Sequence record: NC_052657.1 | Length of the DNA stretch: 64,000 nt | Source: Escherichia phage muut | Direction: 5' to 3' (one strand) | Part shown: one piece after another, positions 15,734 to 51,596 of the stretch | Layout of the letters: the number at the start of each line of letters is the position of its first letter | Position numbering within the stretch: the stretch's first letter is position 1 | Notes under the pieces: generated by a model | Database searches by the model: none | What the model saw: the letters and a program-made list of their open reading frames with translations, nothing else | What the model was told of the DNA's origin: nothing | Program-made: the position numbers and the translations under genes

Positions 15734-16723
15734 ATGAAAGTTTTAAGTCTTTTTGATGGTATGTCAGGAGGAATGCTTGCGCTAAAAAGTGCAGGTATTG
15801 AAGTAGATACATATTACGCTTCAGAATTAGACAAATTTGCCGTAGCTGAAAGCCAAGCAAATTTTCCAGATATTATTCAGTTAGGTGATGTTACAAAATG
15901 GAGAGAATGGGATATCCCGTGGGGAGAAATTGATCTTTTGTTAGGTGGTAGTCCGTGTCAAGGCTTCTCTTCTTCTGGTAAGGGTTTGAACTTTCAAGAT
16001 CCGCGATCTAAGTTATTCTTCGAATATGTTGAAATTCTTGAACATATTAAAAAGTTTAATCCTAATGTTAAGTTCATGCTTGAAAACGTTAAGATGAAAG
16101 TGGAGTGGGAAAACGTGATCACAAGTTACTTAGGTGTTGATCCCGTATTCATTAACTCCGCAGATTTCACGGCACAGAATAGACAACGTTTATACTGGTG
16201 CAACTGGGAAATAAAACCCTGGGAGATTACCAATGAAGTGTTGCAAGATATCATTGAAGATGATAGTATTGTAGACAGAGATAAGGCTTATTGCATAGAT
16301 GCAAATTATGCCAAAGGTGGTAATATAGAACAGTATTTTGAAAAGAGTCGCAGACAACTGGTTTTTTATCCGGCAGCAATATATGGGCGTAGAATTAATG
16401 AAAATGGCAAACGTAGTACATCTAAAACTGATCGTTTGGTACATTGTTTGGAAGTTCAGGACAGTGAAAAAACTCGTTGCCTCACGACTGTGCCTAAAGA
16501 CGTACTATTAGCCTACATTCCACCTGGAAGATATCTAGATGCTTTTGAAAAATTGAGTGAAGGCGTACATTATAGAAAGTTAACGGTTAAAGAGTGTTGC
16601 CGCTTGCAAGGTGTGCCAGATGATTACTTTAAAGTGAGTAGTAACACACAAGCATATAAGATGTTAGGTAACGGTTGGACTATACCTGTCATTGCACATA
16701 TTCTTAAATGTATGGAGGAATAG
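15734..16723 (+). CDS. dcm: DNA cytosine-5 methyltransferase
   Basis: LFDGMSGG (motif I), GSPCQGFS (motif IV PCQ), ENV (motif VI), GNGWTIPV (motif X). Confidence 0.85.
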   Translation: MKVLSLFDGMSGGMLALKSAGIEVDTYYASELDKFAVAESQANFPDIIQLGDVTKWREWDIPWGEIDLLLGGSPCQGFSSSGKGLNFQDPRSKLFFEYVEILEHIKKFNPNVKFMLENVKMKVEWENVITSYLGVDPVFINSADFTAQNRQRLYWCNWEIKPWEITNEVLQDIIEDDSIVDRDKAYCIDANYAKGGNIEQYFEKSRRQLVFYPAAIYGRRINENGKRSTSKTDRLVHCLEVQDSEKTRCLTTVPKDVLLAYIPPGRYLDAFEKLSEGVHYRKLTVKECCRLQGVPDDYFKVSSNTQAYKMLGNGWTIPVIAHILKCMEE

Positions 16724-16845
16724 TGGAAACATTGTGGAAAGGCTGGAAGACTGCTCTGATAGCCTTTATAATTCCATTAACTTTTCTTGGTTGGTGTTTT
16801 TGGGAATTTATCTTTTGGTTAATTTCCCATATACATTGGGGGTAA
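16723..16845 (+). CDS. small hydrophobic peptide (40 aa)
   Basis: GTG overlapping dcm stop with GGAGG RBS; single TM-like segment. Confidence 0.3.
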   Translation: METLWKGWKTALIAFIIPLTFLGWCFWEFIFWLISHIHWG

Positions 16846-16846
16846 T

Positions 16847-17458
16847 ATGACTCAAAAAGTTGCATATCAAGTAGATCGTGAAGACGGTGAAGGTAGTGTT
16901 GTAGTTTTTGATACACATGGTCTTGCAGCAAGACGCAAAGGTGCTTGTCTACTGGACATTGGTGGTGAAGATGAATACTGCACTGTACGTAGAGTAAAAG
17001 AATTTGATCAATATGCTGAAAAAGGTTTTGTACCTGCAAAAGCACTATTAGAAGCTGGATGGTGGATACCTAGTGCACATGATTATGATATTTTGGAATC
17101 AGATACAGACGATTTTAACAGTGAAGATTTTGTTTTTTCTCTGGATGAAAAATGCGTTTGGAAAGATTGGGATGAAATGGAACGCCATGCTTATTTTATA
17201 AACGAAGCATTAGATCGTAAAACTTGGTTTGAGAATACAGTTAAAGCAGCGTATCCTCAATTTACTTTTACAGAATTTTGGGGTGGCCCACACCATATTA
17301 CTCATGTGGCATACTTCGAGTTCCCAGGCTCACGCTATAAAGGTACTGTCTATTGGGATTGGGACGAGGACAAAGAACCTTCTGCTCAAGACTTCCGTTG
17401 CTATGTTTGTCAAGGTGATCAAGAAGCCCTTGACAAGTACCTTAAAAGTCTGGTATAA
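16847..17458 (+). CDS. hypothetical protein (203 aa)
   Basis: ORF only. Confidence 0.5.
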   Translation: MTQKVAYQVDREDGEGSVVVFDTHGLAARRKGACLLDIGGEDEYCTVRRVKEFDQYAEKGFVPAKALLEAGWWIPSAHDYDILESDTDDFNSEDFVFSLDEKCVWKDWDEMERHAYFINEALDRKTWFENTVKAAYPQFTFTEFWGGPHHITHVAYFEFPGSRYKGTVYWDWDEDKEPSAQDFRCYVCQGDQEALDKYLKSLV

Positions 17459-17475
17459 TCCGTAAAACTTAACCA

Positions 17476-17499
17476 AAGCCCCAAGCAGGGGCTTTATTT
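17476..17499 (+). terminator. rho-independent terminator
   Basis: AAGCCCC-AAGCA-GGGGCTT then TATTTG. Confidence 0.6.
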
Positions 17500-17512
17500 G
17501 TCTGGAGGATAT

Positions 17513-18046
17513 ATGGGTTTTGATGACATGTTATTATATGAGGAGGCTTGTGTGAAAGAAGCTATGGCTTTACCAGTTTTATCTATTGATATTACAACAG
17601 TAGACACTTTTTCAGATTGTGAAACGTGTGGATCGTATTCGTCTATTGTACATGAAGTTAGTGGGGATTTAGGCACTTACGAAGATGGAGATTATGCAAG
17701 TTGTTTAGGTGATAATCGAGATGGTGAAGTGGCGAATGTTGCAAACTGGATTGCTTCTAAGTTAAAAGAAAGAAATCGTCCGTTCCCTAATCTTCTTACA
17801 CCAGAAGCTATGCTTAAAGCTGAACAAGAGATGTATGATTATGGTTATAAAGTAGATTATGACTATAATGATCCTAAATATAAAAAATTGAGTGACAAGT
17901 ATTGGGAACTAGCTAATGCTTATGATAAATACTACTCTACAGAAAACATTGTTAAATTGTTTTTAGATTTTGGAGTAGAAATTAATTGGGATTTCGAAGA
18001 GGAAGAGCGTTACGACGCATCTTCTTGGGAGGACGAGGGTGAATGA
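17513..18046 (+). CDS. hypothetical acidic protein (177 aa)
   Basis: ATG with GGAGGA RBS 15 nt inside ORF-track ORF. Confidence 0.5.
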   Translation: MGFDDMLLYEEACVKEAMALPVLSIDITTVDTFSDCETCGSYSSIVHEVSGDLGTYEDGDYASCLGDNRDGEVANVANWIASKLKERNRPFPNLLTPEAMLKAEQEMYDYGYKVDYDYNDPKYKKLSDKYWELANAYDKYYSTENIVKLFLDFGVEINWDFEEEERYDASSWEDEGE

Positions 18047-18783
18047 TAGAACGAAAACCCTTACCAGATAGAGATTACTTGTTATCAAGGTTTAGTGTGG
18101 AGAATGGTCGTCTTGTTTGGAAACCTAAACCTTCTACAACAAAAGAGAACAAAAGGTGGAATAGCAGATACGCAGGGAAGATTGCAGGGACTATTGATAA
18201 AGCTGGTTACTCTCATGTCAAAATAGATGGTATTGTATACTTGGAGCACAGAGTTTGTTTTAAAATGTATCATAATTACTGTCCAGATGTTATAGACCAT
18301 GATGACGGCAATAAACTTAATAATGCGGAAAGTAATTTATTGGATAGTAACTATTTATTAAATAATAACAATAGACACGTGGATGGGTTAGAAGGTATTT
18401 ATGAAAAGGATGGTGTTTTTCTTTGGGTTATAAACTACAACCAAGAAACTTTCTCTGTTTCAGGTTTCAAAACTAAAGAGGAAGCTATTGTAGCTAGAGC
18501 TTTAGCAAAACAAGAAATTTTGAAAGGATCTTATATCAAAAAAGAAAAGAAGCGTATAGATAACACTTCAGGATTAAGCTGTGTGTTTGTGGCAACAAGA
18601 GAGAGAACATTCTTTTTCAAGTTTGTGTTTGACAAGATCACGTATTGCAAATATGGTTTCAACGATCCAGAGAGATGTGCTATAGCTCTGGAGAAACTAA
18701 GATTGAAGGTGATGAAAGAAAAATATAAACCTGCAAATAAAAGCATTTGCGAAAAATATAAGGAGGAGATTTATGCCGCGTAG
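18043..18783 (+). CDS. HNH homing endonuclease with AP2-type DNA-binding domains
   Basis: GY..V.IDG..YLEHRV...IDHDDGNKLNN HNH_3 pattern; two AP2-like repeats. Confidence 0.55.
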   Translation: MIERKPLPDRDYLLSRFSVENGRLVWKPKPSTTKENKRWNSRYAGKIAGTIDKAGYSHVKIDGIVYLEHRVCFKMYHNYCPDVIDHDDGNKLNNAESNLLDSNYLLNNNNRHVDGLEGIYEKDGVFLWVINYNQETFSVSGFKTKEEAIVARALAKQEILKGSYIKKEKKRIDNTSGLSCVFVATRERTFFFKFVFDKITYCKYGFNDPERCAIALEKLRLKVMKEKYKPANKSICEKYKEEIYAA

Positions 18784-19588
18784 AGTCATATTCATAACTG
18801 GTGCAGGACTATCTGTGGATAGCGGTATCCCAGCTTTTAGAACAGATACTTCTTCAGGGAAGGCGTTATGGTCTTCTTATGATCTTTTTGAGGTCTGTGA
18901 CATTTTCAACTTCCGTGACGGTTATCAGCAAGAACAAGGTGTTCTTGATGCTATGGGTGGTTTAGATGCAGAAGGATATAACCTCTACCGTAAAACTCAC
19001 GACTTTTACAATAAACGTCGCGTGGAATTAGAGAAAGTTGACCCGAATCCAGCACATCTTCAGATTGGAGAATGGTTCAAAAAATATGGCCCAGAACGAA
19101 TTATTAACATTACTACTAACGTGGATGACCTCCTTGAACGAGCAGGAGTAGATAGGGAAGAAGTGCTACATGTGCACGGTTTTCTTCCTGAAATTACTTT
19201 TCAAAGAAAAGCTGGACAACCTACAATTGTAAAAGATGTTGGTTATCAAGCCATAGATGTAGATGACTACCATTATGTAAAACCTAATGTAATTTTCTTT
19301 GGGGAAGCTGCTCCACTTTACACGGATATGTATCATATTTTTGATACTTTGACCATGCAAGATTTGGTTGTTGTAGTAGGATGTTCAAACCAAGTTATCA
19401 ATTTTAATTGGGAATTATTCCCTGCACTTAATATGGGTACAAAAATGATCGTTGTTAACCCAGGAATTAATTACGAAGAAACTCTTCTTTACGAAGACAG
19501 AGGAGTTTTTGTTTATCGAGAAAAGGCCGCAGATGCTTTTAGCAATCCTGCTTTCATAAAAATGATAGAAGATCATTTGACTAAGTAA
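18773..19588 (+). CDS. Sir2-family NAD-dependent deacylase/ADP-ribosyltransferase-like protein
   Basis: ITGAGLSVDSGIPAFR, ITTNVDDLLERAG, VVVGCS motifs. Confidence 0.75.
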   Translation: MPRRVIFITGAGLSVDSGIPAFRTDTSSGKALWSSYDLFEVCDIFNFRDGYQQEQGVLDAMGGLDAEGYNLYRKTHDFYNKRRVELEKVDPNPAHLQIGEWFKKYGPERIINITTNVDDLLERAGVDREEVLHVHGFLPEITFQRKAGQPTIVKDVGYQAIDVDDYHYVKPNVIFFGEAAPLYTDMYHIFDTLTMQDLVVVVGCSNQVINFNWELFPALNMGTKMIVVNPGINYEETLLYEDRGVFVYREKAADAFSNPAFIKMIEDHLTK

Positions 19589-21214: not shown

Positions 21215-21319
21215 TTAGTGTTTAAATTTTTCGATTACTTCGTCAACTTTAGCGATGATAACATCTTGGTACTTGTGACCAAAATAACCAACAACAACAC
21301 CAACAATAAACGTCATCAT
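21215..21319 (-). CDS. small hydrophobic peptide (34 aa)
   Basis: ATG directly after upstream stop, AAGGAGAAG RBS. Confidence 0.3.
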   Translation of the reverse strand: MMTFIVGVVVGYFGHKYQDVIIAKVDEVIEKFKH

Positions 21320-24559: not shown

Positions 24560-24733
24560 TCAACATCTTTGTGTTAATTTTATCCACTGTTCACATTCTT
24601 CTTTTGTGTCGTACTCTACAGGCTTCCCTGTATCATTTCCACAACCATCTCCGAACGTAGCCCACCAGGAGAATAGAAAACAAGTTTCTCTTACTCTCCA
24701 CTTATTGGCATAGGGTACAACATAATAACTCAT
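24560..24733 (-). CDS. small protein (57 aa)
   Basis: ATGA overlap with upstream stop; below ORF-track cut-off. Confidence 0.35.
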   Translation of the reverse strand: MSYYVVPYANKWRVRETCFLFSWWATFGDGCGNDTGKPVEYDTKEECEQWIKLTQRC

Positions 24734-28595: not shown

Positions 28596-28763
28596 TTAAT
28601 TGTGAAAAATGTTATCAATCAATATGACTAATAATACAAGGATAGAAGGGAGTAGGAACAGAAATCTTAACATTATGTGATGCGTGTGAGAAGCGGCTTT
28701 AGCGCCAGCCGCCAATAAGCCTACTAATCCTACAATAAAGAGCAGTTGTTCAGGGACACCCAT
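28596..28763 (-). CDS. small membrane protein (55 aa)
   Basis: ATG 1 nt after upstream stop; two hydrophobic stretches. Confidence 0.35.
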   Translation of the reverse strand: MGVPEQLLFIVGLVGLLAAGAKAASHTHHIMLRFLFLLPSILVLLVILIDNIFHN

Positions 28764-28764
28764 A

Positions 28765-28989
28765 TTATGGAACACTTGGATACTCCGTAAGTTCGGCTAA
28801 TAGTTGGATATGTGGACACGTGAATTGTTGTCCTGGATAGCGTGAGCTAATATCATCCAGTAAAGCAATCACAGCATTGTGCAATGCTTCGTAATCCTCA
28901 TAATACACCATCTCTCCATTAGGATCTTCAACAATATCACAGTGACAAGCGTGAGCAGTACACGCATCCCATTCCAGACGTTTTACCAT
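28765..28989 (-). CDS. hypothetical protein with CxxC pairs (74 aa)
   Basis: AGGAGGG RBS; paralog of 23358..23621. Confidence 0.5.
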   Translation of the reverse strand: MVKRLEWDACTAHACHCDIVEDPNGEMVYYEDYEALHNAVIALLDDISSRYPGQQFTCPHIQLLAELTEYPSVP

Positions 28990-32369: not shown

Positions 32370-32400
32370 TGAGAATAATTATCATTTGCATTATCATTCA
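32370..32400. repeat. Fur-box-like palindrome
   Basis: GAGAATAATTATCATTTGC, 14/19 to GATAATGATAATCATTATC. Confidence 0.35.
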
Positions 32401-32554: not shown

Positions 32555-32580
32555 GGAAGATAGCTGATAATGATTATCAT
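32555..32580. repeat. Fur-box-like palindrome
   Basis: GATAATGATTATCATTTGC, 16/19 to Fur consensus. Confidence 0.45.
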
Positions 32581-34934: not shown

Positions 34935-34941
34935 CCGTGTA

Positions 34942-35331: not shown

Positions 35332-35354
35332 AGTATTTACCTTTTTGATTACCT

Positions 35355-35413
35355 GGCGGGAAACCATTTCCCGCCTACGTGGTAAATAGTACCATATTGG
35401 GGATCGGTGTCAA
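35355..35413 (-). promoter_or_regulatory. promoter plus stem-loop cassette
   Basis: TTGACA-16-TACTAT then GGCGGGAAATGGTTTCCCGCC. Confidence 0.55.
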
Positions 35414-35419
35414 TACTTT

Positions 35420-35806
35420 TTATTCAATATAAATCAAATTATCTTCACCAATGTAAGCATGCACCGATGGCATTAATTTAGCTGCATTTGTTAGGCGGTT
35501 GGCGGTGTTAGTAGTGTATATTTCAGGGCGATCCCAAAAGCCTACGCCGTGACCGTTACGGGTGAAATGTAAGTCATTCCCGATCTGGTTTGCTGTTGCG
35601 CCGTCGCTCATTGCCTCAGAGATAGCAGCATCATTGGCATCACAATAAGCCGCTACGTCATGAATGATCCGCTGATGGGCTTGATCTGAAAAATCATAAT
35701 CGTCTAAGTTATCAATAAAATTACCTTCATGATCCCTAGCTGATTCAGCAAAAATAAAGGCTTCTTTATAACCGTTGATGATTTCAATAATGATTTCTGT
35801 TTTCAT
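35420..35806 (-). CDS. hypothetical protein (128 aa)
   Basis: ATGA overlap with upstream gene. Confidence 0.5.
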   Translation of the reverse strand: MKTEIIIEIINGYKEAFIFAESARDHEGNFIDNLDDYDFSDQAHQRIIHDVAAYCDANDAAISEAMSDGATANQIGNDLHFTRNGHGVGFWDRPEIYTTNTANRLTNAAKLMPSVHAYIGEDNLIYIE

Positions 35807-36018
35807 GCTGTACGCTCGACAATAATAATGGTTTGCGGTATCTCGTTTTCTACTACTAACAAGGCTTTTTTCTGTGTGATAGATATTTTAACACGTTGTA
35901 AAGTAGCGGTAAAATCTTTCATTTCATTATGCGCGGATTTAGTGCAATGCCAGATCTCAGGCTTACCTATTTGCAAGCCGCGTAAAAATTCTGTTTTACC
36001 TGTCTTATTCGTGATCAT
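35803..36018 (-). CDS. hypothetical protein (71 aa)
   Basis: ATG with AAGGTG RBS. Confidence 0.45.
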   Translation of the reverse strand: MITNKTGKTEFLRGLQIGKPEIWHCTKSAHNEMKDFTATLQRVKISITQKKALLVVENEIPQTIIIVERTA

Positions 36019-36028
36019 TTGATTCACC

Positions 36029-36133
36029 TTATCCAATACCGTGGGAAGATAGGATCATGTTAGCCATAGTTGCAACCAATCCAACCGACAACGCCAGGCC
36101 AACTATTACAACCGTGAAAATTTTCTCTAACAT
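36029..36133 (-). CDS. small hydrophobic peptide (34 aa)
   Basis: GAGGG RBS; own promoter/hairpin upstream; single TM-like segment. Confidence 0.4.
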   Translation of the reverse strand: MLEKIFTVVIVGLALSVGLVATMANMILSSHGIG

Positions 36134-36151
36134 GATTCTACCCTCATTAAT

Positions 36152-36213
36152 GGGCGTTGCCTTATTGCCCCGCCCTATGTCGTACACTTTACCAGATAAC
36201 CGCGTATTGTCAA
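36152..36213 (-). promoter_or_regulatory. promoter plus stem-loop cassette
   Basis: TTGACA-16-TAAAGT then GGGCG...CGCCC hairpin. Confidence 0.5.
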
Positions 36214-36214
36214 A

Positions 36215-36409
36215 CTATTTTTTATAAGGGATCAGTAAACTTCTTGCTACCGCTTCACGTAAACCTTCCCTTTTTATCAGGTCTATTGTTGCAGGGTGGC
36301 AAGTAAAAGCCTTTGACCATTTTTGATCACCTGGTTTACGGGCGAAAATGTAAACTTCTCCGTCGATTTCATCCCAACGAGTATTGCTTGTTAGTTTTTT
36401 AAGCGCCAT
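36215..36409 (-). CDS. hypothetical protein (64 aa)
   Basis: ATG downstream of hairpin. Confidence 0.5.
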   Translation of the reverse strand: MALKKLTSNTRWDEIDGEVYIFARKPGDQKWSKAFTCHPATIDLIKREGLREAVARSLLIPYKK

Positions 36410-36432
36410 GCTGATTTCTCTTTTAGTTGTGA

Positions 36433-36488
36433 GCGGCACTATTGCCGCCCTACGAAATACATTCTACCCGATTTATAATTGTTGTCAA
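36433..36488 (-). promoter_or_regulatory. promoter plus stem-loop cassette
   Basis: TTGACA-16-TAGAAT then GCGGCA-ATAG-TGCCGC hairpin. Confidence 0.55.
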
Positions 36489-36489
36489 A

Positions 36490-36759
36490 CTATTTTTTCA
36501 AGCTCGACCAGTCAAAACACGGGGCGATCTCGTTAAAACTTGTACCCTGTAAAGCACATAATTTTTTAGCAATAGCCGCCGTAACCTGGCGTTGTACGCG
36601 CGGATCTGCTACTGATTGGAGAAAATAGGCGGTTTTATATGTGATCATGCTTTCGCCTGTTTCCTTGTTAACGTGGTGCACGGTTTTAGCCTTATCATCT
36701 TTTACCAGGGTGTAACCGGATTCGATGGCCTTGATTGCAACGTCCAAAGATATTTTCAT
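36490..36759 (-). CDS. hypothetical protein (89 aa)
   Basis: AAGAGG RBS. Confidence 0.5.
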   Translation of the reverse strand: MKISLDVAIKAIESGYTLVKDDKAKTVHHVNKETGESMITYKTAYFLQSVADPRVQRQVTAAIAKKLCALQGTSFNEIAPCFDWSSLKK

Positions 36760-37425: not shown

Positions 37426-37749
37426 TCAATAATCTTCAATATTTTCTACATTGACAAAAGCATGTTTATTTTCTAAGTTTTCGCCGTACCATTGCCCCAT
37501 GTTGATTTCTGCGGTGCGCAACCAGGACATGCCGCGCTCTATCTTTTTACTTGCAATCTCGATCCGGCTTTTGCATAGTGCTTTCGCTTGCAATGTAAAA
37601 ACACTATTGCCCTGTAATGCTTCCAGGTCATCATGTGCAAGGCGATACTCTTTAAAGCCTGATTCTATCATTTCAATCGCATCAAGGAAACGAGCGCGAT
37701 GATAGAAAAAATCAGAGTTATCCAAATAAACACCGATCACAGATTTCAT
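37426..37749 (-). CDS. hypothetical protein (107 aa)
   Basis: ATG with AAGGG RBS 60 nt inside ORF-track ORF. Confidence 0.5.
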   Translation of the reverse strand: MKSVIGVYLDNSDFFYHRARFLDAIEMIESGFKEYRLAHDDLEALQGNSVFTLQAKALCKSRIEIASKKIERGMSWLRTAEINMGQWYGENLENKHAFVNVENIEDY

Positions 37750-37759
37750 AATTTTACCC

Positions 37760-37820
37760 TTTTGTTTGCGGCCTTTGCCGTTTTCAAGATATAGTTTAAA
37801 GCATAACAAAAAATTGTCAA
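37760..37820 (-). promoter_or_regulatory. promoter with short stem-loop
   Basis: TTGACA-16-TAAACT; CGGC-AAAG-GCCG hairpin. Confidence 0.4.
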
Positions 37821-37849
37821 GCCTTTAAAGCGTACAACTATAAAACCTA

Positions 37850-37969
37850 TTAAAACACAATGCATAACAACATGGCTATAGTAGCAATACAACATAAAGC
37901 CATGCTTGTTTTCCTTCCTTCCTCGTATGCTGGATTTATTACGCTATATTGTACGGGAATAATTTTCAT
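37850..37969 (-). CDS. small hydrophobic peptide (39 aa)
   Basis: AAGGA RBS; Cys-rich hydrophobic C-terminus. Confidence 0.3.
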   Translation of the reverse strand: MKIIPVQYSVINPAYEEGRKTSMALCCIATIAMLLCIVF

Positions 37970-38078
37970 GCTGTTTCCTTAATGTCTTAAAACGTGGTTT
38001 ACAATAGAAACAAGTATACAGAAGAAAAAAGATCCTGACAATAAGATCCCGAAAAATAAATGTAAATAGGGCATGGTT

Positions 38079-39139: not shown

Positions 39140-39277
39140 TTATTCGTTCCAGTATCTTTTTGTGCTGCGATCTCTTTTTGTTTTGTTCCGCTTATCGCCT
39201 TTTTTGGTGATCTCTTCGTTCCAATTTTTACGCGCCTTGCTGCGGTTGAATTTTTCGATCTGCTGTGATGCGTTCAT
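39140..39277 (-). CDS. small basic protein (45 aa)
   Basis: AAGGA RBS; Lys/Arg rich; plus-strand ORFs here look spurious. Confidence 0.4.
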   Translation of the reverse strand: MNASQQIEKFNRSKARKNWNEEITKKGDKRNKTKRDRSTKRYWNE

Positions 39278-39738: not shown

Positions 39739-39909
39739 TTATTTATTTTTTAACGTTAATGTTCCCAGCTTATCAGCGTGACGCAGACCAGGAAAGATCC
39801 ATTTTCCTGATTCATCTTTCACCGGGGCTTTAAGCGTAGCGCCCAGGTTGGCGGCGTTAACTTTACGTGCAACGTTGCGAGCGGCTTCACGGGTGGCGAA
39901 AGTGATCAT
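39739..39909 (-). CDS. small protein (56 aa)
   Basis: GAGGA RBS after hairpin; below ORF-track cut-off. Confidence 0.45.
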   Translation of the reverse strand: MITFATREAARNVARKVNAANLGATLKAPVKDESGKWIFPGLRHADKLGTLTLKNK

Positions 39910-40321: not shown

Positions 40322-40561
40322 TTACATTCCTACCATAGCGGCGCGGATACTGGTTTTACTGAATTTATAGCCATCTGGCGTAGTATTTTCGCCCATTTCG
40401 TTAAGTAGTGACATCATTTCACGCGCGGCGTTATCTTTATTGTTGTTCACGGCTATAAATTCTTTTGCCATATTATAAAAACCTGGATCGTTATTAATCC
40501 AAAGGCTTACATTCCAATGAGTTTTATTTTTGTGACCGTTGTACATTTTAGATTTAGCCAT
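40322..40561 (-). CDS. hypothetical protein (79 aa)
   Basis: AAGAG RBS after hairpin. Confidence 0.5.
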   Translation of the reverse strand: MAKSKMYNGHKNKTHWNVSLWINNDPGFYNMAKEFIAVNNNKDNAAREMMSLLNEMGENTTPDGYKFSKTSIRAAMVGM

Positions 40562-40585
40562 GATGTTAATCTCTTTTTCAGTGAG

Positions 40586-40644
40586 GCGGGAACTATTCCC
40601 GCTCTCGATGTAAACTATTATACAGTACTAAGATACTTTGTCAA
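40586..40644 (-). promoter_or_regulatory. promoter plus stem-loop cassette
   Basis: TTGACA-16-TATAAT then GCGGGAATAGTTCCCGC. Confidence 0.6.
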
Positions 40645-40647
40645 TAC

Positions 40648-40923
40648 TTAAGTATTGTAAATGTCGTGAATAGTGATAAAGTTTTTACGACCGTAAACAT
40701 GTAAATCAGTATCAATGTAGTGCTTATCAAGTACATCCTCGACGCTTAACGCGGTGTCGTGAATATCTTCGTAGAATTGAGGATCTACAATCTTACTTAA
40801 ATCATCCGGCGTTAACTTATCATTAAGCCATTGAACCGCCTGGATATCTGCTTCACGTTTCCAGTCTTCCAGGTTAGTAGTCAGTACTTGTTCGATTTCG
40901 TTAGCTGTCAGTAGAATCCGCAT
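40648..40923 (-). CDS. hypothetical protein (91 aa)
   Basis: GGAA RBS. Confidence 0.5.
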   Translation of the reverse strand: MRILLTANEIEQVLTTNLEDWKREADIQAVQWLNDKLTPDDLSKIVDPQFYEDIHDTALSVEDVLDKHYIDTDLHVYGRKNFITIHDIYNT

Positions 40924-40956
40924 TTTAATGTTTCCTTATCAGTGGTTGATGTAAGT

Positions 40957-40984
40957 ATTATACTCGTTTACTTTCTATTGTCAA
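40957..40984 (-). promoter_or_regulatory. sigma70-like promoter
   Basis: TTGACA-16-TATAAT. Confidence 0.55.
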
Positions 40985-40994
40985 ACTATTTTAT

Positions 40995-41100
40995 CAGGGG
41001 GAGTTTTTCGTGTGCCTTACTCCTGGGCTACTTAACGGGGTGTTACTTCGTTCCCCCGTCCTGATATGAAACATTTTACGCTTTTTATTCGTGCTGTCAA
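40995..41100 (-). promoter_or_regulatory. second promoter followed by double stem-loop
   Basis: TTGACA-16-TAAAAT, then ACGGGG...CCCCGT and GGAGT...ACTCC hairpins. Confidence 0.45.
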
Positions 41101-41106
41101 TGCTTT

Positions 41107-41472
41107 TTATAAATCTTTTTTACGTTTAACATCGCTTGCATGGCTGTATACAGCGATCCCATTGTCACGGCAAAAACGGGAAAGATACGCGCCGCGTGAA
41201 AACTCTTTACCTTCCAGGTTGATAACCTTGCTAAACTCTTCTAGGGCAACGGTATCAAAATGATCCCCGTATCCATATTGGAACGGCACGTTTACCACTT
41301 CGATCAGTTTACCGCCGATCTCAACGTCAACCATCAAAGAGAAATAAGTATTACCATAAGACTTTTGAAACCAGCGACGGGCGCTAATATGCACCGCTTC
41401 AATGCTGGATAGTTCAATTTTAGCCGTGTTAGCCAGGGTAGCATAAGCGGAAACATTAATATTTTTAGCCAT
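41107..41472 (-). CDS. hypothetical protein (121 aa)
   Basis: AGGA RBS. Confidence 0.5.
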   Translation of the reverse strand: MAKNINVSAYATLANTAKIELSSIEAVHISARRWFQKSYGNTYFSLMVDVEIGGKLIEVVNVPFQYGYGDHFDTVALEEFSKVINLEGKEFSRGAYLSRFCRDNGIAVYSHASDVKRKKDL

Positions 41473-42437: not shown

Positions 42438-42584
42438 TTATCCTCCCCAGCGTTTAAAGCCCGTTGCACGGTTGTTTTTTAGCTCTCGTTTTAGTCTCTT
42501 GCAACGGTTTACAAGTGCAAACCGTGCCGGAGTCGTAACAGTAGCGCCGTTTTTGGTGTGAATACTCATTACATATTGTTTCAT
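42438..42584 (-). CDS. small basic protein (48 aa)
   Basis: ATG after hairpin; stop overlaps RBS of next gene. Confidence 0.4.
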   Translation of the reverse strand: MKQYVMSIHTKNGATVTTPARFALVNRCKRLKRELKNNRATGFKRWGG

Positions 42585-44397: not shown

Positions 44398-45588
44398 TTA
44401 CACCTCCTTACTGTATACTAATTTGCCACCATATTGTGTAATAATTTTTTGAAGATTTTCCAAATCAGAAACACTTACTGTTTCTGTATAACCATCTTTC
44501 AACTCTCTTTTCGTTAAAATACCAGTTTTTAATTTTTTCTTTATAGCTCTTTCAGCAGCCTTACATTGTTTCACTGTGCTAAAATCATATAAACAAATAC
44601 GCTCCATAAAAAACAGATTACGGCTATTTTGAATGTTTAATCGCCTATCACTATCTTTAGCTATACCAAACTTAAGAGCAACTATAATATTATCATCCTT
44701 AACAATATTAATATATAACTGCTGCTGACTATGACCAGCACACATAGGACAACCTCGACAGCGGCTTAATAAATTATGAGCACTCCCTATCTGCTCACCA
44801 TGCACAAGACAAAGATATTTAAACTTACCTATAGAAGAGGGTTTGGTAATCCAATCTACCCAGACATACCCTTTCCCTTCTACTTCCTTTTTTACCCTAT
44901 AGGTGATCTGGTCTTCTGTATACTGATAGTTCCCACAACGACACGGAATGTACCCTCGTTTAAGGTTATTTCCTTCAGAGTAAAATTTACCATCACAAAC
45001 ACCTGCTTGAACATATTCATCATGAGAGCAAACAGGACATTCAACCATCCAGATACTATGCCTGCGTCCTTTACTCCGTGTTCCTGTGTTAGTGAAGATA
45101 GTGCCTTCCTTAAATTTCCCTGTAGAAAAGAAATCTGCAATATGTTGATCGTCGGGCATTGTTAGTGCCTTCCTTGTATTCTCCCCCCTACATTGTGGAC
45201 AACCTCGACCGCCTTTAAATTGATGAATTGCTGTACTTTGCCATCTATTCCCACAATGGCACAACAAATCAAGTTTTGTTTTATTCCCTTTCCATTCTCC
45301 AACGTACCCTAACACCTGATACCCCTTCTTCTGTGCTATCTCTTCCAAGATCGGCAATTCTGTTTCCCATGTTAACGGCTTCTTACCAGAACAGATAGGA
45401 CAACTGTTGCCGCGCTTGAAATTACTAATACTACAAGTCTTCCATTCATGTTCCTGCCTACAGCGTAGAATCATTTTCGTATCACAACCTATAAACGGTT
45501 CAACATATCCTAGGATCTCAATCCCTTTATTATTCGCAATAGGTTGACACTCTTCTTTATATTGTTCCCATGATTTTGGTGCTGCCAT
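44398..45588 (-). CDS. zinc-ribbon repeat protein with C-terminal T5orf172/GIY-YIG-like domain
   Basis: Repeated C..C...CP.C modules; C-terminal KFGIAKDSDRR...DGYTE segment similar to 49258..50256. Confidence 0.4.
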   Translation of the reverse strand: MAAPKSWEQYKEECQPIANNKGIEILGYVEPFIGCDTKMILRCRQEHEWKTCSISNFKRGNSCPICSGKKPLTWETELPILEEIAQKKGYQVLGYVGEWKGNKTKLDLLCHCGNRWQSTAIHQFKGGRGCPQCRGENTRKALTMPDDQHIADFFSTGKFKEGTIFTNTGTRSKGRRHSIWMVECPVCSHDEYVQAGVCDGKFYSEGNNLKRGYIPCRCGNYQYTEDQITYRVKKEVEGKGYVWVDWITKPSSIGKFKYLCLVHGEQIGSAHNLLSRCRGCPMCAGHSQQQLYINIVKDDNIIVALKFGIAKDSDRRLNIQNSRNLFFMERICLYDFSTVKQCKAAERAIKKKLKTGILTKRELKDGYTETVSVSDLENLQKIITQYGGKLVYSKEV

Positions 45589-45662: not shown

Positions 45663-46790
45663 TTAAAACACACTTGCCAAAGTTGCACCATTGGTGATAG
45701 TTGGTTCCAGAACAATACGGAAAGAATCTTCTGGATCATCACTAAACACAACGATTTTACCGCCTGTAATAAGATCTGCTTTCATTTTTGTCGCATTCAA
45801 TGGAATTCGAGCATCGCCTTCATCATCAAAAACCACGTAAGAGCTATTAGCAAGGGCTTCTTTAGAATCTGCATCACTTGGAGATGACAAGTACACGTCC
45901 AGTGTGCACGAACCACCTAAAAAGATTGCAGGTGTGAAGTTATGCCAACTAGATACCCAGCTAACTTTCTGAAGTTTCCCATTAATAACAACACTGCTGA
46001 TATCCCATTTATTACCACCACCTAAAGAAACACCCATCATAGAGATGCATTCTTTAAAGGATAAATCAGGGTAGAAATTAAGTTCTTCTACTATACCTTG
46101 GATCACATCAAAGGACAACTCTAAACTTACATCCCAAAGTCTTTGGAAATTATCAAAGTGTGCTTTGTTATCCAGGTTTTTATCTAAATAGTCCATCATA
46201 GTTTCTAGTGAGATTTTATCATAATTAAAATTATAAAACACACGACTAGGACGATTTAAAAAGAATTCAGAGATAAAGCCACTGTTTTTAGTCAGAATAA
46301 ACAGTTTATTACCACTGCCAGTACCATCTAACAAAGTGAGAAGTGCTTCTTGATCTTGTTTCTTCTCATATACTTTATCAAATTCATCAAAAATAATCAC
46401 TGCTTTGTCTGTGATCTTGCTAATAAGTTCAATGAAATTAGCATCACTGTAGGCTTGAGTAACCATAATAGTTGGAATACCTTCTTCTACAAGGTCACGA
46501 CTAATGAGTTTGGCTAACATAGTTTTACCACTGCCCTTAGTGCCTGTCAGGAGCAAACCTGTATTTTTACCTTGTGCACTCCGGCGATGGAATGTACGAA
46601 TAACGTGATTTGCTCGTTTTTCTGTTTCACCATACAGAACATCCGGTACACCTGTTAGATTACCACGGCTTAAAAAGTAATTGCCAAGGGGATCACGACT
46701 AACAGTATAGAATCCAGGTGGAAGATAGTTAGATTCCACGCCCATATCTTTATTTACACTTACAATATCACCATAAATCGTGTATTTCAT
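45663..46790 (-). CDS. P-loop ATPase, paralog 1
   Basis: Walker A GTKGSGKT, Walker B IIFDEFDK; ~50% identical to 62498..63658. Confidence 0.6.
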   Translation of the reverse strand: MKYTIYGDIVSVNKDMGVESNYLPPGFYTVSRDPLGNYFLSRGNLTGVPDVLYGETEKRANHVIRTFHRRSAQGKNTGLLLTGTKGSGKTMLAKLISRDLVEEGIPTIMVTQAYSDANFIELISKITDKAVIIFDEFDKVYEKKQDQEALLTLLDGTGSGNKLFILTKNSGFISEFFLNRPSRVFYNFNYDKISLETMMDYLDKNLDNKAHFDNFQRLWDVSLELSFDVIQGIVEELNFYPDLSFKECISMMGVSLGGGNKWDISSVVINGKLQKVSWVSSWHNFTPAIFLGGSCTLDVYLSSPSDADSKEALANSSYVVFDDEGDARIPLNATKMKADLITGGKIVVFSDDPEDSFRIVLEPTITNGATLASVF

Positions 46791-46801
46791 TTTAACCCCT
46801 T

Positions 46802-47239
46802 TTATTTTTGTTGAGATGAACGAATTAAATCAGCAGCAAATTCAATCAGATACACTTTTGGTGCAATAATGATTTTTAGCCAATCAAAATTCGAAAAGAA
46901 AATAACAAATCCTAAAAAGAAAAAGAAAGCACAGACAACAAGACCAACAATAGGTAAAGCAGATACTTCACCATAGCGATCTCGTGACCACAGGCATTCT
47001 TTATCTTTAATTGCTTTTACGAGGTTCCGTACAGCAATAAAAGTAATAAACATAAAGCAAATACTAAAAAGTTGCCATAAACCTGCGGATACTGCTTTCC
47101 ACACTAATAATTGATGAATTACTTCTGGAATTTGTTGTTTTCCAAACTCTACAACATCACTCATTGTTTGAATAGTGACGTTAACCATGTTCAGAAGTAC
47201 ATCAGTTGCTTTATCTGCGATTGCGTTTGTTTTACTCAT
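46802..47239 (-). CDS. membrane protein (145 aa)
   Basis: GAGGA RBS; several hydrophobic segments. Confidence 0.5.
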   Translation of the reverse strand: MSKTNAIADKATDVLLNMVNVTIQTMSDVVEFGKQQIPEVIHQLLVWKAVSAGLWQLFSICFMFITFIAVRNLVKAIKDKECLWSRDRYGEVSALPIVGLVVCAFFFFLGFVIFFSNFDWLKIIIAPKVYLIEFAADLIRSSQQK

Positions 47240-47253
47240 TCTTTATTCCTCAC

Positions 47254-47427
47254 TTACCTTTTAAGGAAACCAATCATAATGAAGAACCACATCCAGGCAG
47301 GAGAGATAATAAAGCCAAAGAAACCGCAAATAACCGCTTTCTTAATCTCTTCCAGACAACCCACCAGGAAAAGAACGAGTGAGACTACAATCCAGATAGC
47401 CATAAATACTGTAACAAAGAAACTCAT
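47254..47427 (-). CDS. small membrane protein (57 aa)
   Basis: GGAGAAAGG RBS; two hydrophobic segments; plus-strand ORF here looks spurious. Confidence 0.45.
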   Translation of the reverse strand: MSFFVTVFMAIWIVVSLVLFLVGCLEEIKKAVICGFFGFIISPAWMWFFIMIGFLKR

Positions 47428-48671: not shown

Positions 48672-49025
48672 ATGAAAATTGTACACGATGAAATTCAATT
48701 TGAAGAGAGTGATCTTCTTGATCTAGATGTGACACTAAGTAAACTGATCTACAATGCACTTTCTGCATATCGTGCAAAAGTGATAGCCACAAACAATGTT
48801 AAAATTCCTAGTGGGTTACTTCGTCGGATGTACCCACACACTAAAGGTGACTATCTACCTTATATGGAAGAACGAGCAGCAGAACACTGGTTAGAAATTC
48901 TTGAAAAAATGGAGTCTTCTTTTAAGGACTCAACTCCACCAGAAGAAGTTAATGAAAAACAGCGGCAAGATCGTTTAGAAGGTCGTATTTTGTTTGCTAA
49001 GTATTTCCATAATCTGTGGATGTAA
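48672..49025 (+). CDS. hypothetical protein (117 aa)
   Basis: AAGGAGAG RBS. Confidence 0.5.
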   Translation: MKIVHDEIQFEESDLLDLDVTLSKLIYNALSAYRAKVIATNNVKIPSGLLRRMYPHTKGDYLPYMEERAAEHWLEILEKMESSFKDSTPPEEVNEKQRQDRLEGRILFAKYFHNLWM

Positions 49026-49038
49026 TAAGGAGAAAACT

Positions 49039-49206
49039 ATGAGCGAAACCAAGAAACCAATTCCGCGCACTTACCTACACGTTGACCCTGAAATCTTCAA
49101 GGTTTTATTTGCTGAAGCCAAGAAAAGGCAAATTATGGTCAGTGATTTGATGTTAGAAATCATTACTGAAGCAGCAGAGAACATCAAACAAAAAAAGGGT
49201 AAGTGA
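49039..49206 (+). CDS. ribbon-helix-helix-like small DNA-binding protein (55 aa)
   Basis: ATG with AAGGAG RBS; beta-strand then two helices pattern (TYLHVDPEIFKVLFAEAKKRQIMVSDLMLEIITEA). Confidence 0.4.
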   Translation: MSETKKPIPRTYLHVDPEIFKVLFAEAKKRQIMVSDLMLEIITEAAENIKQKKGK

Positions 49207-49257
49207 TCCTCATTCACTTTAGTAGCGCATTAAGCGTGATTTATAAGGAGATTTTTA

Positions 49258-50256
49258 ATGATTAAACATACAAAACCTTTTTTAGGAATAGATTATGACT
49301 TACTAGCAATCACTTCCCTGGTGATTAACGGCAAAACAAAAGAAGTAAAACTACACCATAAGATCATTTATTCTTATTTGTTAAGTTTATCTGGCACATA
49401 CCAAAAGGTAACACCATCTTTGAAAGGTATTGGTGAGCGGTTAGGAGTAGGTACAGATCAGACGGTACGCCGTCATATCAAAGATCTTGTTTCTTTTGGA
49501 TGGTTGAAGATTGAGGAAAGGGCAGGTAGCACAAATGCTTATATTGTCCTTCCTTATGAACAAGAAGCCCAGACACAACAAGAAGCTACTGTTAAAGCTG
49601 TTCCTGATCAGCTTCCCCCTACAGAATGGAAAATGTTTAAAAAATGGTATTCACCATCTGGTAATGAATACACCGCTACACTGCCAGCCGTTGAAATCTA
49701 TAGCTATATAGCTGGATTCAATGAACAAGGGCAAGAATGTTACGCTACTCAAAAAACATTAGCTAATATTGGAATGGTTAGTGATCGTCAGGTACGCAAT
49801 ATTATAAATATGTTTGTTGATATGGGAGTTCTTTCTGTAGAGACACGCCACGGTCAAACATCACTCTATAAAGCATTACCCTTTACAGAGATGAATGTTA
49901 AAAAGCAAAAAAGAGTAAAAGAAATTCCGTACACCGAAAACCAACAATCAAATTGGTGTTTTTATATACAAAAATTGGTTTCTCCGTTTTATACCTGCTT
50001 GAAAGCAGGGATTACGGTAGATATTGATCGTAGAATCAAAGAGCAAAGTAAAAACAGCATGTTTAAGCATTATCTACTTGACAGTTTCAGTGGAGATTAT
50101 GCTACTATTTTCGCTTTGGAGAAAGAAGTTAAAAAATGTTTTAACCGCTCTTTATGCTTAAAAGAGTGGCTACCGGATGGATATACAGAAACATATAATC
50201 TAGAAGATTATGAAAATATAAAAAATTTTGTTAGTGAAAAATTGATTAAGGAGTAA
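49258..50256 (+). CDS. winged-HTH protein with C-terminal T5orf172/GIY-YIG-like domain
   Basis: Two wHTH-like segments; C-terminal LKAGITVDIDRR...DGYTE. Confidence 0.4.
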   Translation: MIKHTKPFLGIDYDLLAITSLVINGKTKEVKLHHKIIYSYLLSLSGTYQKVTPSLKGIGERLGVGTDQTVRRHIKDLVSFGWLKIEERAGSTNAYIVLPYEQEAQTQQEATVKAVPDQLPPTEWKMFKKWYSPSGNEYTATLPAVEIYSYIAGFNEQGQECYATQKTLANIGMVSDRQVRNIINMFVDMGVLSVETRHGQTSLYKALPFTEMNVKKQKRVKEIPYTENQQSNWCFYIQKLVSPFYTCLKAGITVDIDRRIKEQSKNSMFKHYLLDSFSGDYATIFALEKEVKKCFNRSLCLKEWLPDGYTETYNLEDYENIKNFVSEKLIKE

Positions 50257-50258
50257 AC

Positions 50259-50408
50259 ATGGTTATCTACAAAAATAAGTTCACTGGCTGTCTGCGTAAA
50301 TTTATTGACAAAAAAGGGTATGTTTCTGTTGACAATGGTGTTACGTGGGTACAAAATGGCACTTCAGAACAACTGATCAAGGCTTTACCTTACTATGAGG
50401 AGGTTTAA
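50259..50408 (+). CDS. small protein (49 aa)
   Basis: ATG 2 nt after upstream stop; fills gap to next gene exactly. Confidence 0.4.
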   Translation: MVIYKNKFTGCLRKFIDKKGYVSVDNGVTWVQNGTSEQLIKALPYYEEV

Positions 50409-50732
50409 ATGTCCAACAATCTGTTTAGCGTGTCAATTGCACCGCGTGTTAATATTCGCTGTCAGTTTGTTAACTTACCAGGTGTGACACATATCACTTT
50501 AGAGTATGATCCTCGTTCACAAGAGAACCCAATTACAGGCAAGATTGATTCAGCCTACGGCGACTTTCTGATGGATCACCAAGCAATCTTATGTTGTGTG
50601 CAACGCTTACAAGCAGGGTCTTTATACATCTTCAAGAAATCTGTGTTCCAGGAGATTGCTCAAGCGGTTGAGAGTGGTATGGAAACACTTAACAACATGA
50701 TCGAAGCCGCTAACAAAAAGGAGGTTTTATGA
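50409..50732 (+). CDS. hypothetical protein (107 aa)
   Basis: GAGGAGG RBS. Confidence 0.5.
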   Translation: MSNNLFSVSIAPRVNIRCQFVNLPGVTHITLEYDPRSQENPITGKIDSAYGDFLMDHQAILCCVQRLQAGSLYIFKKSVFQEIAQAVESGMETLNNMIEAANKKEVL

Positions 50733-50986
50733 CACTTTATCATGTAACTACCGAAGGTGATTGCGAAGGTCGTACCACAAAAGATTTAGGGTATGTCGAA
50801 GCAGATTCGCCTGAACATGCAATTAAGTATCTGCACTCTATTGGTAAGTATGCTTATTATGAATATTATATCCATGAAATTGAGGAAAATCCTATACAAG
50901 TAGCAACACCTATGGTAGAGTTGGAACATCTTAAAGCAAAAGTTAAAACTGGCAGCACATCTGGATTTAAGGGGGTAGTACAATGA
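50729..50986 (+). CDS. hypothetical protein (85 aa)
   Basis: AAGGAGG RBS. Confidence 0.5.
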   Translation: MTLYHVTTEGDCEGRTTKDLGYVEADSPEHAIKYLHSIGKYAYYEYYIHEIEENPIQVATPMVELEHLKAKVKTGSTSGFKGVVQ

Positions 50987-51252
50987 AAATTCGTGATAAT
51001 ATTGCAGACTACATTGTAACTTGTGAAGATGGTACAGACGTTTTGCTTCCGCAACCAATTGTTTGGGAGGATGGTGAAATGTACCGTATAGCTACGGAAC
51101 ATTATAAAGGTATTGACATTAAAGCTCTTTGTGCTATGCTTGTCGAAGATCAAGAATCTGATCTCTCAGTTGTAACATATCAAGATGTGTATGAAATCTG
51201 TGAAACTTTACTACAAATGCATGAAGATGGACAAGAGGTGTTTCCAAAATGA
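50983..51252 (+). CDS. hypothetical protein (89 aa)
   Basis: ATGA overlap. Confidence 0.5.
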   Translation: MKIRDNIADYIVTCEDGTDVLLPQPIVWEDGEMYRIATEHYKGIDIKALCAMLVEDQESDLSVVTYQDVYEICETLLQMHEDGQEVFPK

Positions 51253-51449
51253 CAGAATGGGTAAAAGTAGAAGACCCATACGATATCCCACTAGGTGAGT
51301 ATGTGGTGGTAATGGAAGATGGTGGAAAAGGGTATTGTGAAGTGCATAAAAGTATGTCTGGTAAGATTATTGTGGTGAACCATCATTTTCACTTTGATTA
51401 CCCTCCTATTGTGGCATATATGCCTTTACCTAAATATGAAGGGGATTAA
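51249..51449 (+). CDS. hypothetical protein (66 aa)
   Basis: ATGA overlap. Confidence 0.5.
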   Translation: MTEWVKVEDPYDIPLGEYVVVMEDGGKGYCEVHKSMSGKIIVVNHHFHFDYPPIVAYMPLPKYEGD

Positions 51450-51596
51450 ATGTTATTCTTTAGACTTAATATTGCTTTTTGTTTGTTTGCAAACATTGCA
51501 TTCTGGGTATTGGGTAGTGTAAAATTAGGCTACTTCTTTATTGTACTACAAGCTATTTGTTTAGCTGGTCAAATAATCACTAAGGGGCGAGTATGA
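51450..51596 (+). CDS. small membrane protein (48 aa)
   Basis: ATG directly after upstream stop; hydrophobic; stop overlaps next ATG. Confidence 0.4.
   Translation: MLFFRLNIAFCLFANIAFWVLGSVKLGYFFIVLQAICLAGQIITKGRV

Follow-up and report, generated by a model that had tools for sequence, protein, structure and literature searches.

The 64,000-nucleotide (nt) stretch of Escherichia phage muut DNA analyzed here (sequence record NC_052657.1; hereafter the window) carries seven short open reading frames (ORFs), c1 to c7, which a preliminary description of the sequence had singled out as unannotated genes for small hydrophobic peptides with good ribosome binding sites. All seven were found at the positions where that description had placed them: c1 (16723..16845) and c7 (51450..51596) on the plus strand; c2 (21215..21319), c3 (28596..28763, or 28596..28775 if read from an upstream GTG), c4 (36029..36133), c5 (37850..37969) and c6 (47254..47427) on the minus strand. 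These ORFs are genuine, conserved protein-coding genes, under purifying selection in the frames given by these coordinates. Each is co-oriented with its neighbours and fills an inter-gene gap, often through start/stop overlaps or with separations of 0-2 nt. Five of them (c1, c2, c3, c6 and c7) are packed in operons, with start/stop overlaps of 1-4 nt or spacers of 20 nt or less that carry a Shine-Dalgarno (SD) sequence, while c4 and c5 each lie behind a sigma-70-type promoter sequence of their own. The seven proteins show no relationship to one another.

An SD site had been ascribed to every ORF, and this proved correct for six of the seven. The motifs are GGAGG, 4 nt before the GTG of c1 at 16723 (plus strand); AGGAG, 6 nt before the ATG of c2 (minus); GAGGG at 7 nt for c4 (minus); AAGGA at 6 nt for c5 (minus); GGGAG at 6 nt for c6 (minus); and AAGGGG at 5 nt for c7 (plus). 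The exception is c3, whose ATG at 28763 has no SD within range; a GGAG is found 7 nt before an in-frame GTG (28775, minus strand) situated 12 nt further upstream. Similarly, the transmembrane (TM)-like segments attributed to the peptides were recovered by hydropathy in c1 and in c3 to c7. Here the best 19-residue Kyte-Doolittle windows score 1.94 (c1), 2.78 (c3), 2.46 (c4), 2.44 (c5), 2.91 (c6) and 1.92 (c7), the usual TM threshold being 1.6. The c2 product, with 14 hydrophobic residues and a best window of 1.17, falls below this threshold and is marginal. The frequency with which such ORFs arise by chance was estimated by counting small ORFs of 25-65 amino acids (aa) with an SD of at least 4 nt and a 17-residue Kyte-Doolittle window of at least 2.0. 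Thirteen were present in the six frames of the window, against 2.2 ± 1.6 in 20 composition-preserving shuffles, and eight of the 13 fall in coding-strand gaps between long genes, which represent about 15% of the sequence.

Conservation in related phages had been proposed as a check and the outcome was positive: all seven ORFs are present in each of the four full relatives, Nernie, PaulScherrer, 92CQ and phi92, whereas a dozen neighbouring genes are absent from at least one of them. Selection was assessed by counting single-site variants among unique relatives. These included nine loci from IMG/VR scans with Sir2 and ATPase neighbours and ten Logan/ENA loci, the latter added via the exact c6 protein because the nine IMG/VR loci were too few for a per-gene ratio of non-synonymous to synonymous rates (dN/dS). 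When the seven ORFs are pooled, 38 synonymous variants stand against 15 non-synonymous ones (dN/dS 0.11, P=2e-14); leaving out c3 and c6, the figures are 17 against 14 (dN/dS 0.23, P=5e-5). Taken separately, synonymous and non-synonymous variants number 17 and 1 in c3 (dN/dS 0.02, P=5e-10, against 0.77 and infinity in the two remaining frames), 5 and 3 in c4 (dN/dS 0.21, P=0.03), 5 and 5 in c5 (dN/dS 0.26, P=0.04), 2 and 2 in c1 (dN/dS 0.24, P=0.17), 2 and 1 in c2 (dN/dS 0.13, P=0.11) and 3 and 3 in c7 (dN/dS 0.29, P=0.13, frames not separated). In c6 only four sites vary, all of them synonymously (dN/dS 0, P=0.002), in a sample that consists in part of loci selected for an identical protein. 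The frame stated above has the lowest ratio of non-synonymous to synonymous variants in six of the seven ORFs. Amino-acid changes are mostly conservative (A/V, L/V, I/V, R/K), the exceptions being a C-to-Y replacement in c5 and an A-to-D replacement in c2.

It is highly improbable that some or all of the seven are untranslated ORFs that arose by chance in promoter regions or in T-rich spacers between genes. ORFs of precisely this sort do occur nearby, since a 52-aa form of c4 and the ORFs at 37979..38074 and 37746..37895 (see below) span promoters and are devoid of coding signatures; the individually small variant counts of c1, c2 and c7 also leave room for such an interpretation. It does not account, however, for the frame-specificity of the pooled purifying selection, for the excess over shuffled sequences, or for the absence of any disrupted copy among the relatives examined (17 of 17 are intact in the case of c7). 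Furthermore, diverged relatives of c1, c2, c4, c5, c6 and c7 exist in other phage lineages, in syntenic positions for c1, c2, c5 and c7, with motifs and lengths conserved.

The statement that the genes were unannotated holds only in part. It applies to c5 in most records of the genus and to c4 in many of the records sampled. The other five are annotated genes of phi92 (FR775895.2), where c1 corresponds to gp042, c2 to gp032, c3 to gp009, c6 to gp219 and c7 to gp211, with 95-100% amino-acid identity over the full length and shared flanking genes (the methyltransferase gene and gp041 for c1; gp031 and gp033 for c2; gp008 and gp010 for c3; gp218 and gp220 for c6; gp212 and gp210 for c7). Nothing substantive distinguishes the phi92 orthologs, c3 being present there in its 59-aa form; two of them, gp042 and gp009, bear the label "bad prodigal statistics". 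The c4 and c5 sequences are present in phi92 and not annotated there. An exact-sequence look-up retrieved all seven proteins from the protein collection, six of them under NCBI "hypothetical protein" names; the exact c2 and c6 sequences carry phi92 accessions, and c5 is represented only by unnamed Logan/ENA calls, its 90% cluster having no NCBI-named member. Five proteins gave full-length matches to PHROG hidden Markov models: c2 to phrog_11666 (E=8e-13), c4 to phrog_14631 (E=4e-22), c5 to phrog_10979 (E=2e-9), c6 to phrog_22950 (E=7e-40) and c7 to phrog_27111 (E=1e-35). No PHROG family was found for c1, and the best PHROG score for c3 was E = 0.07. The five families are listed as "unknown function" except phrog_10979, which is a "membrane protein" in the moron/host-takeover category. 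Thus, most of the seven are already recorded as "hypothetical protein" in related phages.

The c1 gene encodes a 40-aa, Trp-rich protein, predicted to be a single-pass membrane microprotein. Its start codon shares 1 nt with the stop codon of a Dcm-like methyltransferase gene, and its own stop lies 1 nt before the start of gp041. The GTG at 16723, initially proposed as the start, is supported by the presence of ATG at the same codon in most relatives; a 45-aa form initiating from the upstream ATG at 16708 was rejected, as that ATG is not conserved. The gene is annotated in phi92, VEcB, EC_OE_11 and others. Diverged relatives of 39-42 aa are found approximately 50-560 nt upstream of gp041 homologs in loci L007, L008 and L033. 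Features common to the family include a Trp near the N-terminus, a Glu embedded in the TM segment and a C-terminal H-[IL]-[HR]-W motif. A search of 5.8 billion proteins with a profile of the c1 family yielded only three clusters, all phage-like and unnamed.

In the 34-aa c2 protein, a short hydrophobic N-terminus precedes a charged amphipathic helix. Its gene begins right after the gp031 stop codon, upstream of the zinc-finger gene gp033, and was found in 132 phage records. Phapecoctavirus ukendt (ukendt_131) and L006 have orthologs with 61-64% identity in the corresponding place; in comparisons with these, variable sites are distributed 8/5/21 over the three codon positions.

A peculiarity of c3 is its double choice of start codon. 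Reading from the SD-preceded GTG yields 59 aa, whereas the ATG, which directly follows an upstream stop codon, yields 55 aa; both versions exist in GenBank, the shorter in the BASEL phages and the longer in phi92, whose 180-nt form carries a weak SignalP 3.0 call. In either version the protein is predicted to form a two-TM hairpin with a His-rich basic loop, KAASHTHHIMLR. The gene is confined to the genus (about 54 Justusliebigvirus records) and has no PHROG or Pfam match. The gene upstream, gp008, shows a weak match to Lar-like restriction-alleviation proteins.

The c4 gene, the first of a small early transcription unit, encodes a 34-aa protein with a single predicted TM segment. Its sigma-70-type promoter (36186..36213, minus strand) comprises TTGACA (36213) and TAAAGT (36186) separated by 16 nt, with an upstream TG, and is followed by a 5' leader hairpin at 36152..36175 (minus strand; -16.8 kcal/mol, z = -4.0). 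The start originally assigned to this gene (ATG 36133) is correct. A 52-aa form beginning at GTG 36187 was discarded, since this codon lies inside the -10 element and since, in PaulScherrer, the 18 additional N-terminal codons are frameshifted by a 1-nt indel; in addition, phrog_14631 is a 34-position profile matching residues 19-52 of the long ORF. The extension is nonetheless conserved at the nucleotide level because it contains the promoter and the leader hairpin. In ukendt, promoter-like hexamers are retained (TTGACA, and TAGAAT in place of TAAAGT) around a 16-nt spacer of entirely different sequence. Matches to c4 were found in 229 records across Stephanstirmvirinae and Vequintavirinae, divided between a 90-100% form and a 59-62% form; in many of the rows sampled, no annotation lies beneath the match.

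The arrangement seen at c4 recurs throughout its surroundings. On the minus strand between 34500 and 41700, the -35 element is a perfect TTGACA in at least 17 sigma-70-type promoters, which amounts to roughly one for each small gene. Behind most of them, about 8 nt past the -10 element, comes a 5' leader hairpin rich in GC and of the type GGCGGGAAATGGTTTCCCGCC, with folding energies of -15 to -19 kcal/mol, z values of -3 to -5.5 and no match to an Rfam family. The presence of a separate TTGACA promoter for nearly every small gene in this 34.5-41.7 kb interval fits early transcription by the host polymerase.

The c5 protein (39 aa) is a predicted tail-anchored microprotein, with a soluble N-terminus and a C-terminal TM segment. 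A probable promoter is found at 38013..38041 on the minus strand (TTGTCA, 17 nt, TATACT). Within the family the N-terminal motif V-[EQ]-Y-[ST]-V-x-N-P-x-x-x-E-[GS] is conserved, and the non-synonymous changes in c5 all fall within the TM segment. An ortholog of the same length, ukendt_73, lies downstream of a gp240 homolog and is preceded, in the corresponding spacer, by a promoter and a leader hairpin of its own. Members of 39-41 aa also exist in Rosemountvirus-like phages (genomes of 52-57 kb), where they are encoded 1-2 kb from the left end, examples being 1501..1620 in fHy-Eco03 (L051) and 1480..1605 in Salmonella phage Sz (L050). In fHy-Eco03 the gene lies inside a 3.7-kb terminal repeat and is therefore present twice per genome. 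The phages carrying the family (Justusliebigvirus, Phapecoctavirus and Rosemountvirus-like) are unrelated, virulent and enterobacterial. A match in Klebsiella phage KLB29 (E=3, among tail genes) was treated as a chance hit.

Among the ORFs of this locus, the conserved gene is c5. The annotations of Nernie, PaulScherrer and 92CQ show two different ORFs here. One (c5b; 37979..38074, minus strand, 96 nt, 31 aa), annotated in several relatives, holds the c5 promoter and has accumulated one synonymous against three non-synonymous variants. The other (c5alt; 37746..37895, minus strand, 150 nt, 49 aa) overlaps the 3' end of c5 by 46 nt, contains the TTGACA promoter of the next gene (37820..37793), is frameshifted in L010 and shows two synonymous against seven non-synonymous variants. 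No homolog of either was found in Phapecoctavirus. It is probable that c5b is a promoter-containing spacer between gp240 and c5 rather than a gene, and that the two ORFs are spurious and displace the real gene in those annotations. Searches with tblastn showed the c5 locus to be unannotated in phi92, alia, PATM, PD114 and KKP_3264.

The 57-aa c6 protein, with two predicted TM segments, is encoded between gp218 and the gene for the membrane protein gp220, two genes upstream of that for the AAA ATPase gp221. It is the sole gene in the region with 100% nucleotide identity in all four full relatives, and the identical protein occurs in 50 of 54 genus records and in 504 contigs. More distant relatives are ukendt_46 (26% identity) and a protein of Citrobacter phage Tr1 (39%). 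A lipobox-like LVGC sequence suggested a lipoprotein or u-spanin; this was rejected on the grounds that the N-terminus (MSFF) is without a basic residue and that the lipobox is not conserved, with Ser/Leu in ukendt_46 at the position aligned to the Cys. The Cys is, moreover, only about 8 residues from the second TM segment. In three lineages the AAA ATPase gene is directly preceded by genes for one or two membrane or secreted proteins, whose identity varies: c6 and gp220 in the window (45663..47427, minus strand), a 54-aa two-TM protein and a signal-peptide protein in ukendt (L002, 31202..32873), and two copies of gp220 in L012 (9089..11125). The idea that c6, gp220 and gp221 might constitute a "split FtsH" was dropped, as a PDB search with gp221 returned only weak p97/Cdc48 AAA matches (E ~1e-4). 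Finally, c7 encodes a 48-aa protein with two predicted TM segments. The gene starts right after the stop codon of gp212 and overlaps the start of gp210 as ATGA. A syntenic ortholog in L012 (44 aa, 33% identity) is preceded by an AAGGAGG SD and placed between homologs of gp212 and gp210.

The position of these genes in the viral genome could be defined from the relatives. When the window was compared in stretches of 20-25 kb (megablast), more than 230 phage records were matched, and the best matches were the E. coli myophages ZYD, Nernie, Paula and Eryne (97-98% nucleotide identity, with 99-100% of the query covered). PaulScherrer, a curated relative, is classed in Stephanstirmvirinae, genus Justusliebigvirus; from this and from the 97-98% identity we conclude that the window comes from an E. 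coli myophage of the phi92 type. A counterpart of the direct terminal repeat of phi92 (343 bp) lies at 32315..32657, with 97.7% identity, within an ORF-poor zone (32000..33500) with a GC content of 0.32. The window therefore contains the physical genome ends and, compared with phi92, is a permuted assembly. On the minus strand, the genes descending from about 32 to 20 kb correspond to gp001-gp036, the left end of phi92, and those descending from 48.3 to 33.5 kb to gp217-gp248, the right end. The seven genes are located in early/accessory regions that flank this terminus, in agreement with the early location attributed to them at the outset. Their neighbours belong to PHROGs of unknown function, except for the AAA ATPase gp221 and the weakly Lar-like gp008. 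This weakly Lar-like neighbour of c3, together with the membrane proteins encoded before the AAA ATPase, fits a host-takeover or accessory setting. The window contains no tRNA gene, and an Rfam search of it at gathering thresholds yielded no RNA family.

Several other features of the window are worth recording. The preliminary list of hydrophobic small ORFs was incomplete, since 37979..38074 (the c5b ORF), 32398..32502 and 34650..34727, all on the minus strand, satisfy the same sequence criteria. The last two, of 34 aa in the terminus region and of 25 aa beside a bidirectional terminator, respectively, may be chance ORFs. Eight non-hydrophobic small ORFs of 45-57 aa with an SD also occupy gaps between genes: 2728..2874, 6927..7070, 50259..50408 and 52789..52953 on the plus strand, and 24560..24733, 39140..39277, 39739..39909 and 42438..42584 on the minus strand. 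One is CxxC-rich and one very basic; these eight are probably real small genes that fell below the same ORF-track cut-off. Two segments are mosaic: nucleotide identity is about 90% between 34251..36496 and rV5-like Vequintavirinae, and again about 90% between 40487..41119 and a group of 350-kb jumbo phages (121Q, PBECO4 and relatives). When a coverage of at least 80% is required, two plus-strand blocks, 18043..19588 and 48994..50732, are not found in Nernie, PaulScherrer, 92CQ or phi92. A 246-aa ORF lies in the first, together with a Sir2-like gene whose identity to IMG/VR relatives is only 73%; the second contains a 332-aa ORF equal in length to an L024 gene with a weak HTH_36 match. A 937-aa ORF at 55062..57875 (plus strand) encodes a UvrD/Rep-type helicase with an intein; the intein-containing precursor is annotated in PaulScherrer, and some relatives have an intein-free form of 578 aa. 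A DUF723/CapR endonuclease-like gene at 44398..45588 (minus strand), beside a conserved NADAR/YbiA-like gene, ranges from 329 to 467 aa among relatives, with a best identity of 87%, and may be mobile or rapidly changing. Lastly, 19 GenBank records labelled "Campylobacter phage" (MG0656xx, e.g. MG065639, MG065645 and MG065689) are 96-97% identical to this group of E. coli phages over 20 kb; the host labels or the samples of these records are probably wrong.

As to what the proteins do, we consider it probable that the seven genes specify inner-membrane proteins of 34-59 residues, produced early and acting via larger membrane proteins. Their predicted architectures differ: c1 and c4 would be single-pass proteins, c2 an N-terminal anchor attached to an amphipathic helix, c5 a tail-anchored protein, and c3, c6 and c7 hairpins. 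In this scheme, host RNA polymerase would transcribe c4 and c5 from their own promoters, and the peptides would be made early in infection and inserted into the E. coli cytoplasmic membrane. There they would bind larger membrane proteins of host or phage origin, so as to modulate or block transporters, receptors or DNA-entry routes, or to serve as small subunits of phage complexes. Gene linkage points to gp041 as a possible phage partner for c1, and to gp220 and the AAA ATPase gp221 for c6. Precedents are provided by the bacterial proteins AcrZ, MgrB, KdpF, CydX and MgtS, which possess one TM helix and bind a larger membrane protein; c1, c4 and c5 share their size (50 residues or less) and predicted one-TM layout, but have no homology to them and are encoded by a phage.

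A number of observations weigh against this proposal. Membrane insertion is predicted from hydropathy, and the 14-residue hydrophobic stretch of c2 is short for spanning a bilayer. AlphaFold2, run without an alignment, models c6 not as a hairpin but as one continuous helix (mean predicted local distance difference test score, pLDDT, 88). Partner binding is proposed by analogy with known bacterial and phage microproteins, and linkage between c1 and gp041, seen in only about four of nine gp041-carrying lineages, is suggestive rather than strict, as is the linkage of membrane-protein genes with the AAA ATPase gene. With regard to coding, the variant counts of c1, c2 and c7 are singly too small for significance, those of c7 do not discriminate between frames, and those of c6 are biased, as some of the loci were chosen by the exact c6 protein. 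Literature searches turned up no study of the function, transcriptome or ribosome profile of these genes or of the subfamily.

More specific roles can be envisaged and are all less probable, decreasing in likelihood from superinfection exclusion through membership of a phage complex and toxin-like action to lysis control. Exclusion and lysis timing were the two functions put forward in the preliminary description. Exclusion is usually brought about by small membrane proteins, as exemplified by Imm and Sp of T4, which are small, early-expressed inner-membrane proteins of a virulent coliphage, as the present candidates are predicted to be. That at least one of the seven acts in this way, as an early inner-membrane blocker of superinfection or DNA entry, would be consistent with their early location, with the separate promoters of c4 and c5, and with the location of c5-family genes, which lie within 1-2 kb of the left end in Rosemountvirus-like phages and, in fHy-Eco03, inside the terminal repeat, probably the first DNA to enter the cell. 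Yet Imm and Sp, at 83-97 aa, are two to three times larger, no candidate matches an exclusion family in Pfam or PHROGs, and the sequence offers nothing that separates exclusion from other membrane roles; we thus regard exclusion as an unlikely, if leading, alternative. Similarly unlikely, by our estimate, is that the peptides are small subunits or anchors of phage complexes, c1 with gp041, and c6 with gp220 and the ATPase gp221. A c1-like small ORF near a gp041 homolog in four lineages, three of them without the methyltransferase gene, speaks for such an association, as do the membrane or secreted proteins encoded directly upstream of the AAA ATPase in the window, ukendt and L012. Against it, the gp041 homologs in L029, L030, L031, L040 and L042 have no c1-like neighbour, L012 is without c6, gp041, gp220 and gp218 are themselves of unknown function, and the ATPase resembles p97-type AAA domains only weakly.

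The size and hydrophobicity of the peptides also recall TisB, Hok or Ibs-type toxins, and c1, whose family keeps polar residues within or next to the TM segment (the intramembrane Glu, the C-terminal His and Trp), would be the best candidate for a channel. We nevertheless hold it to be quite doubtful that the peptides are membrane-depolarising toxins involved in host shut-off, in the manner of type I toxins or viroporins. Searches of NCBIfam and Pfam gave no match to type I toxin families (Hok, Ldr, Ibs, TisB); the H-x-H-W spacing in c1 differs from the H-x-x-x-W motif of influenza M2; and early depolarisation would harm an energy-dependent lytic cycle. Unlike the genes of type I toxins, those described here have strong SDs and lie in operons or behind ordinary promoters. 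As for an antisense RNA antitoxin, the Rfam search of the window revealed no family, no dedicated antisense search having been made. Least likely of all, and very improbable in our judgment, is that c3, c6 and c7 are lysis timers akin to holins, pinholins or antiholins. They resemble class II holins and pinholins (such as S21 68) in being small proteins with two predicted TM segments, but are shorter (48-59 aa), have no adjacent endolysin gene and lie in early/accessory rather than late blocks. The 49 kb of Nernie covering the region carry 144 annotated features, none of them an endolysin, holin or spanin, which makes lysis timing the weaker half of the original suggestion. The C-terminal tails of c6 (LKR), c7 (TKGRV) and c3 (DNIFHN) measure only 3-6 residues; those of c6 and c7, with 3-5 polar residues, may not correspond to the charged cytoplasmic tail typical of holins. 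The lipobox-like LVGC of c6, as noted, is not conserved in ukendt_46. Across all candidates, Pfam (E up to 1) and PHROGs (E up to 0.1) produced no holin, antiholin, spanin or Imm/Sp match, and PADLOC found no defence model for the eight peptides tested. The sole NCBIfam match was a sub-threshold one of c2 to the PncF immunity protein (17 bits against a cut-off of 45); like sub-threshold matches to NDUF_C2 and to the RSV (respiratory syncytial virus) SH protein, it was dismissed as hydrophobic noise.

Altogether, we favour the interpretation of the seven as early inner-membrane proteins that would act through larger membrane proteins. As the genes are real, mostly recorded already and of unknown function, the finding is an ordinary one: it opens no new question and leaves knowledge of the phi92-like phages unchanged. 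What it yields are corrections to annotation, namely that c5 is the conserved gene at its locus, that c4 is the 34-aa form and that c1 starts at 16723. A more ambitious suggestion, which we consider rather doubtful, is that the c5 family, which many annotations miss, represents a dedicated immediate-early factor at the cytoplasmic face of the inner membrane; if true, the family might, for example, neutralise a membrane-bound host defence or seal a DNA-entry route. Because of their conserved polar motifs, the c1 and c5 families would be reasonable first targets for experiments. In conclusion, the seven are well-supported additions to the many phage membrane microproteins that lack an assigned function.

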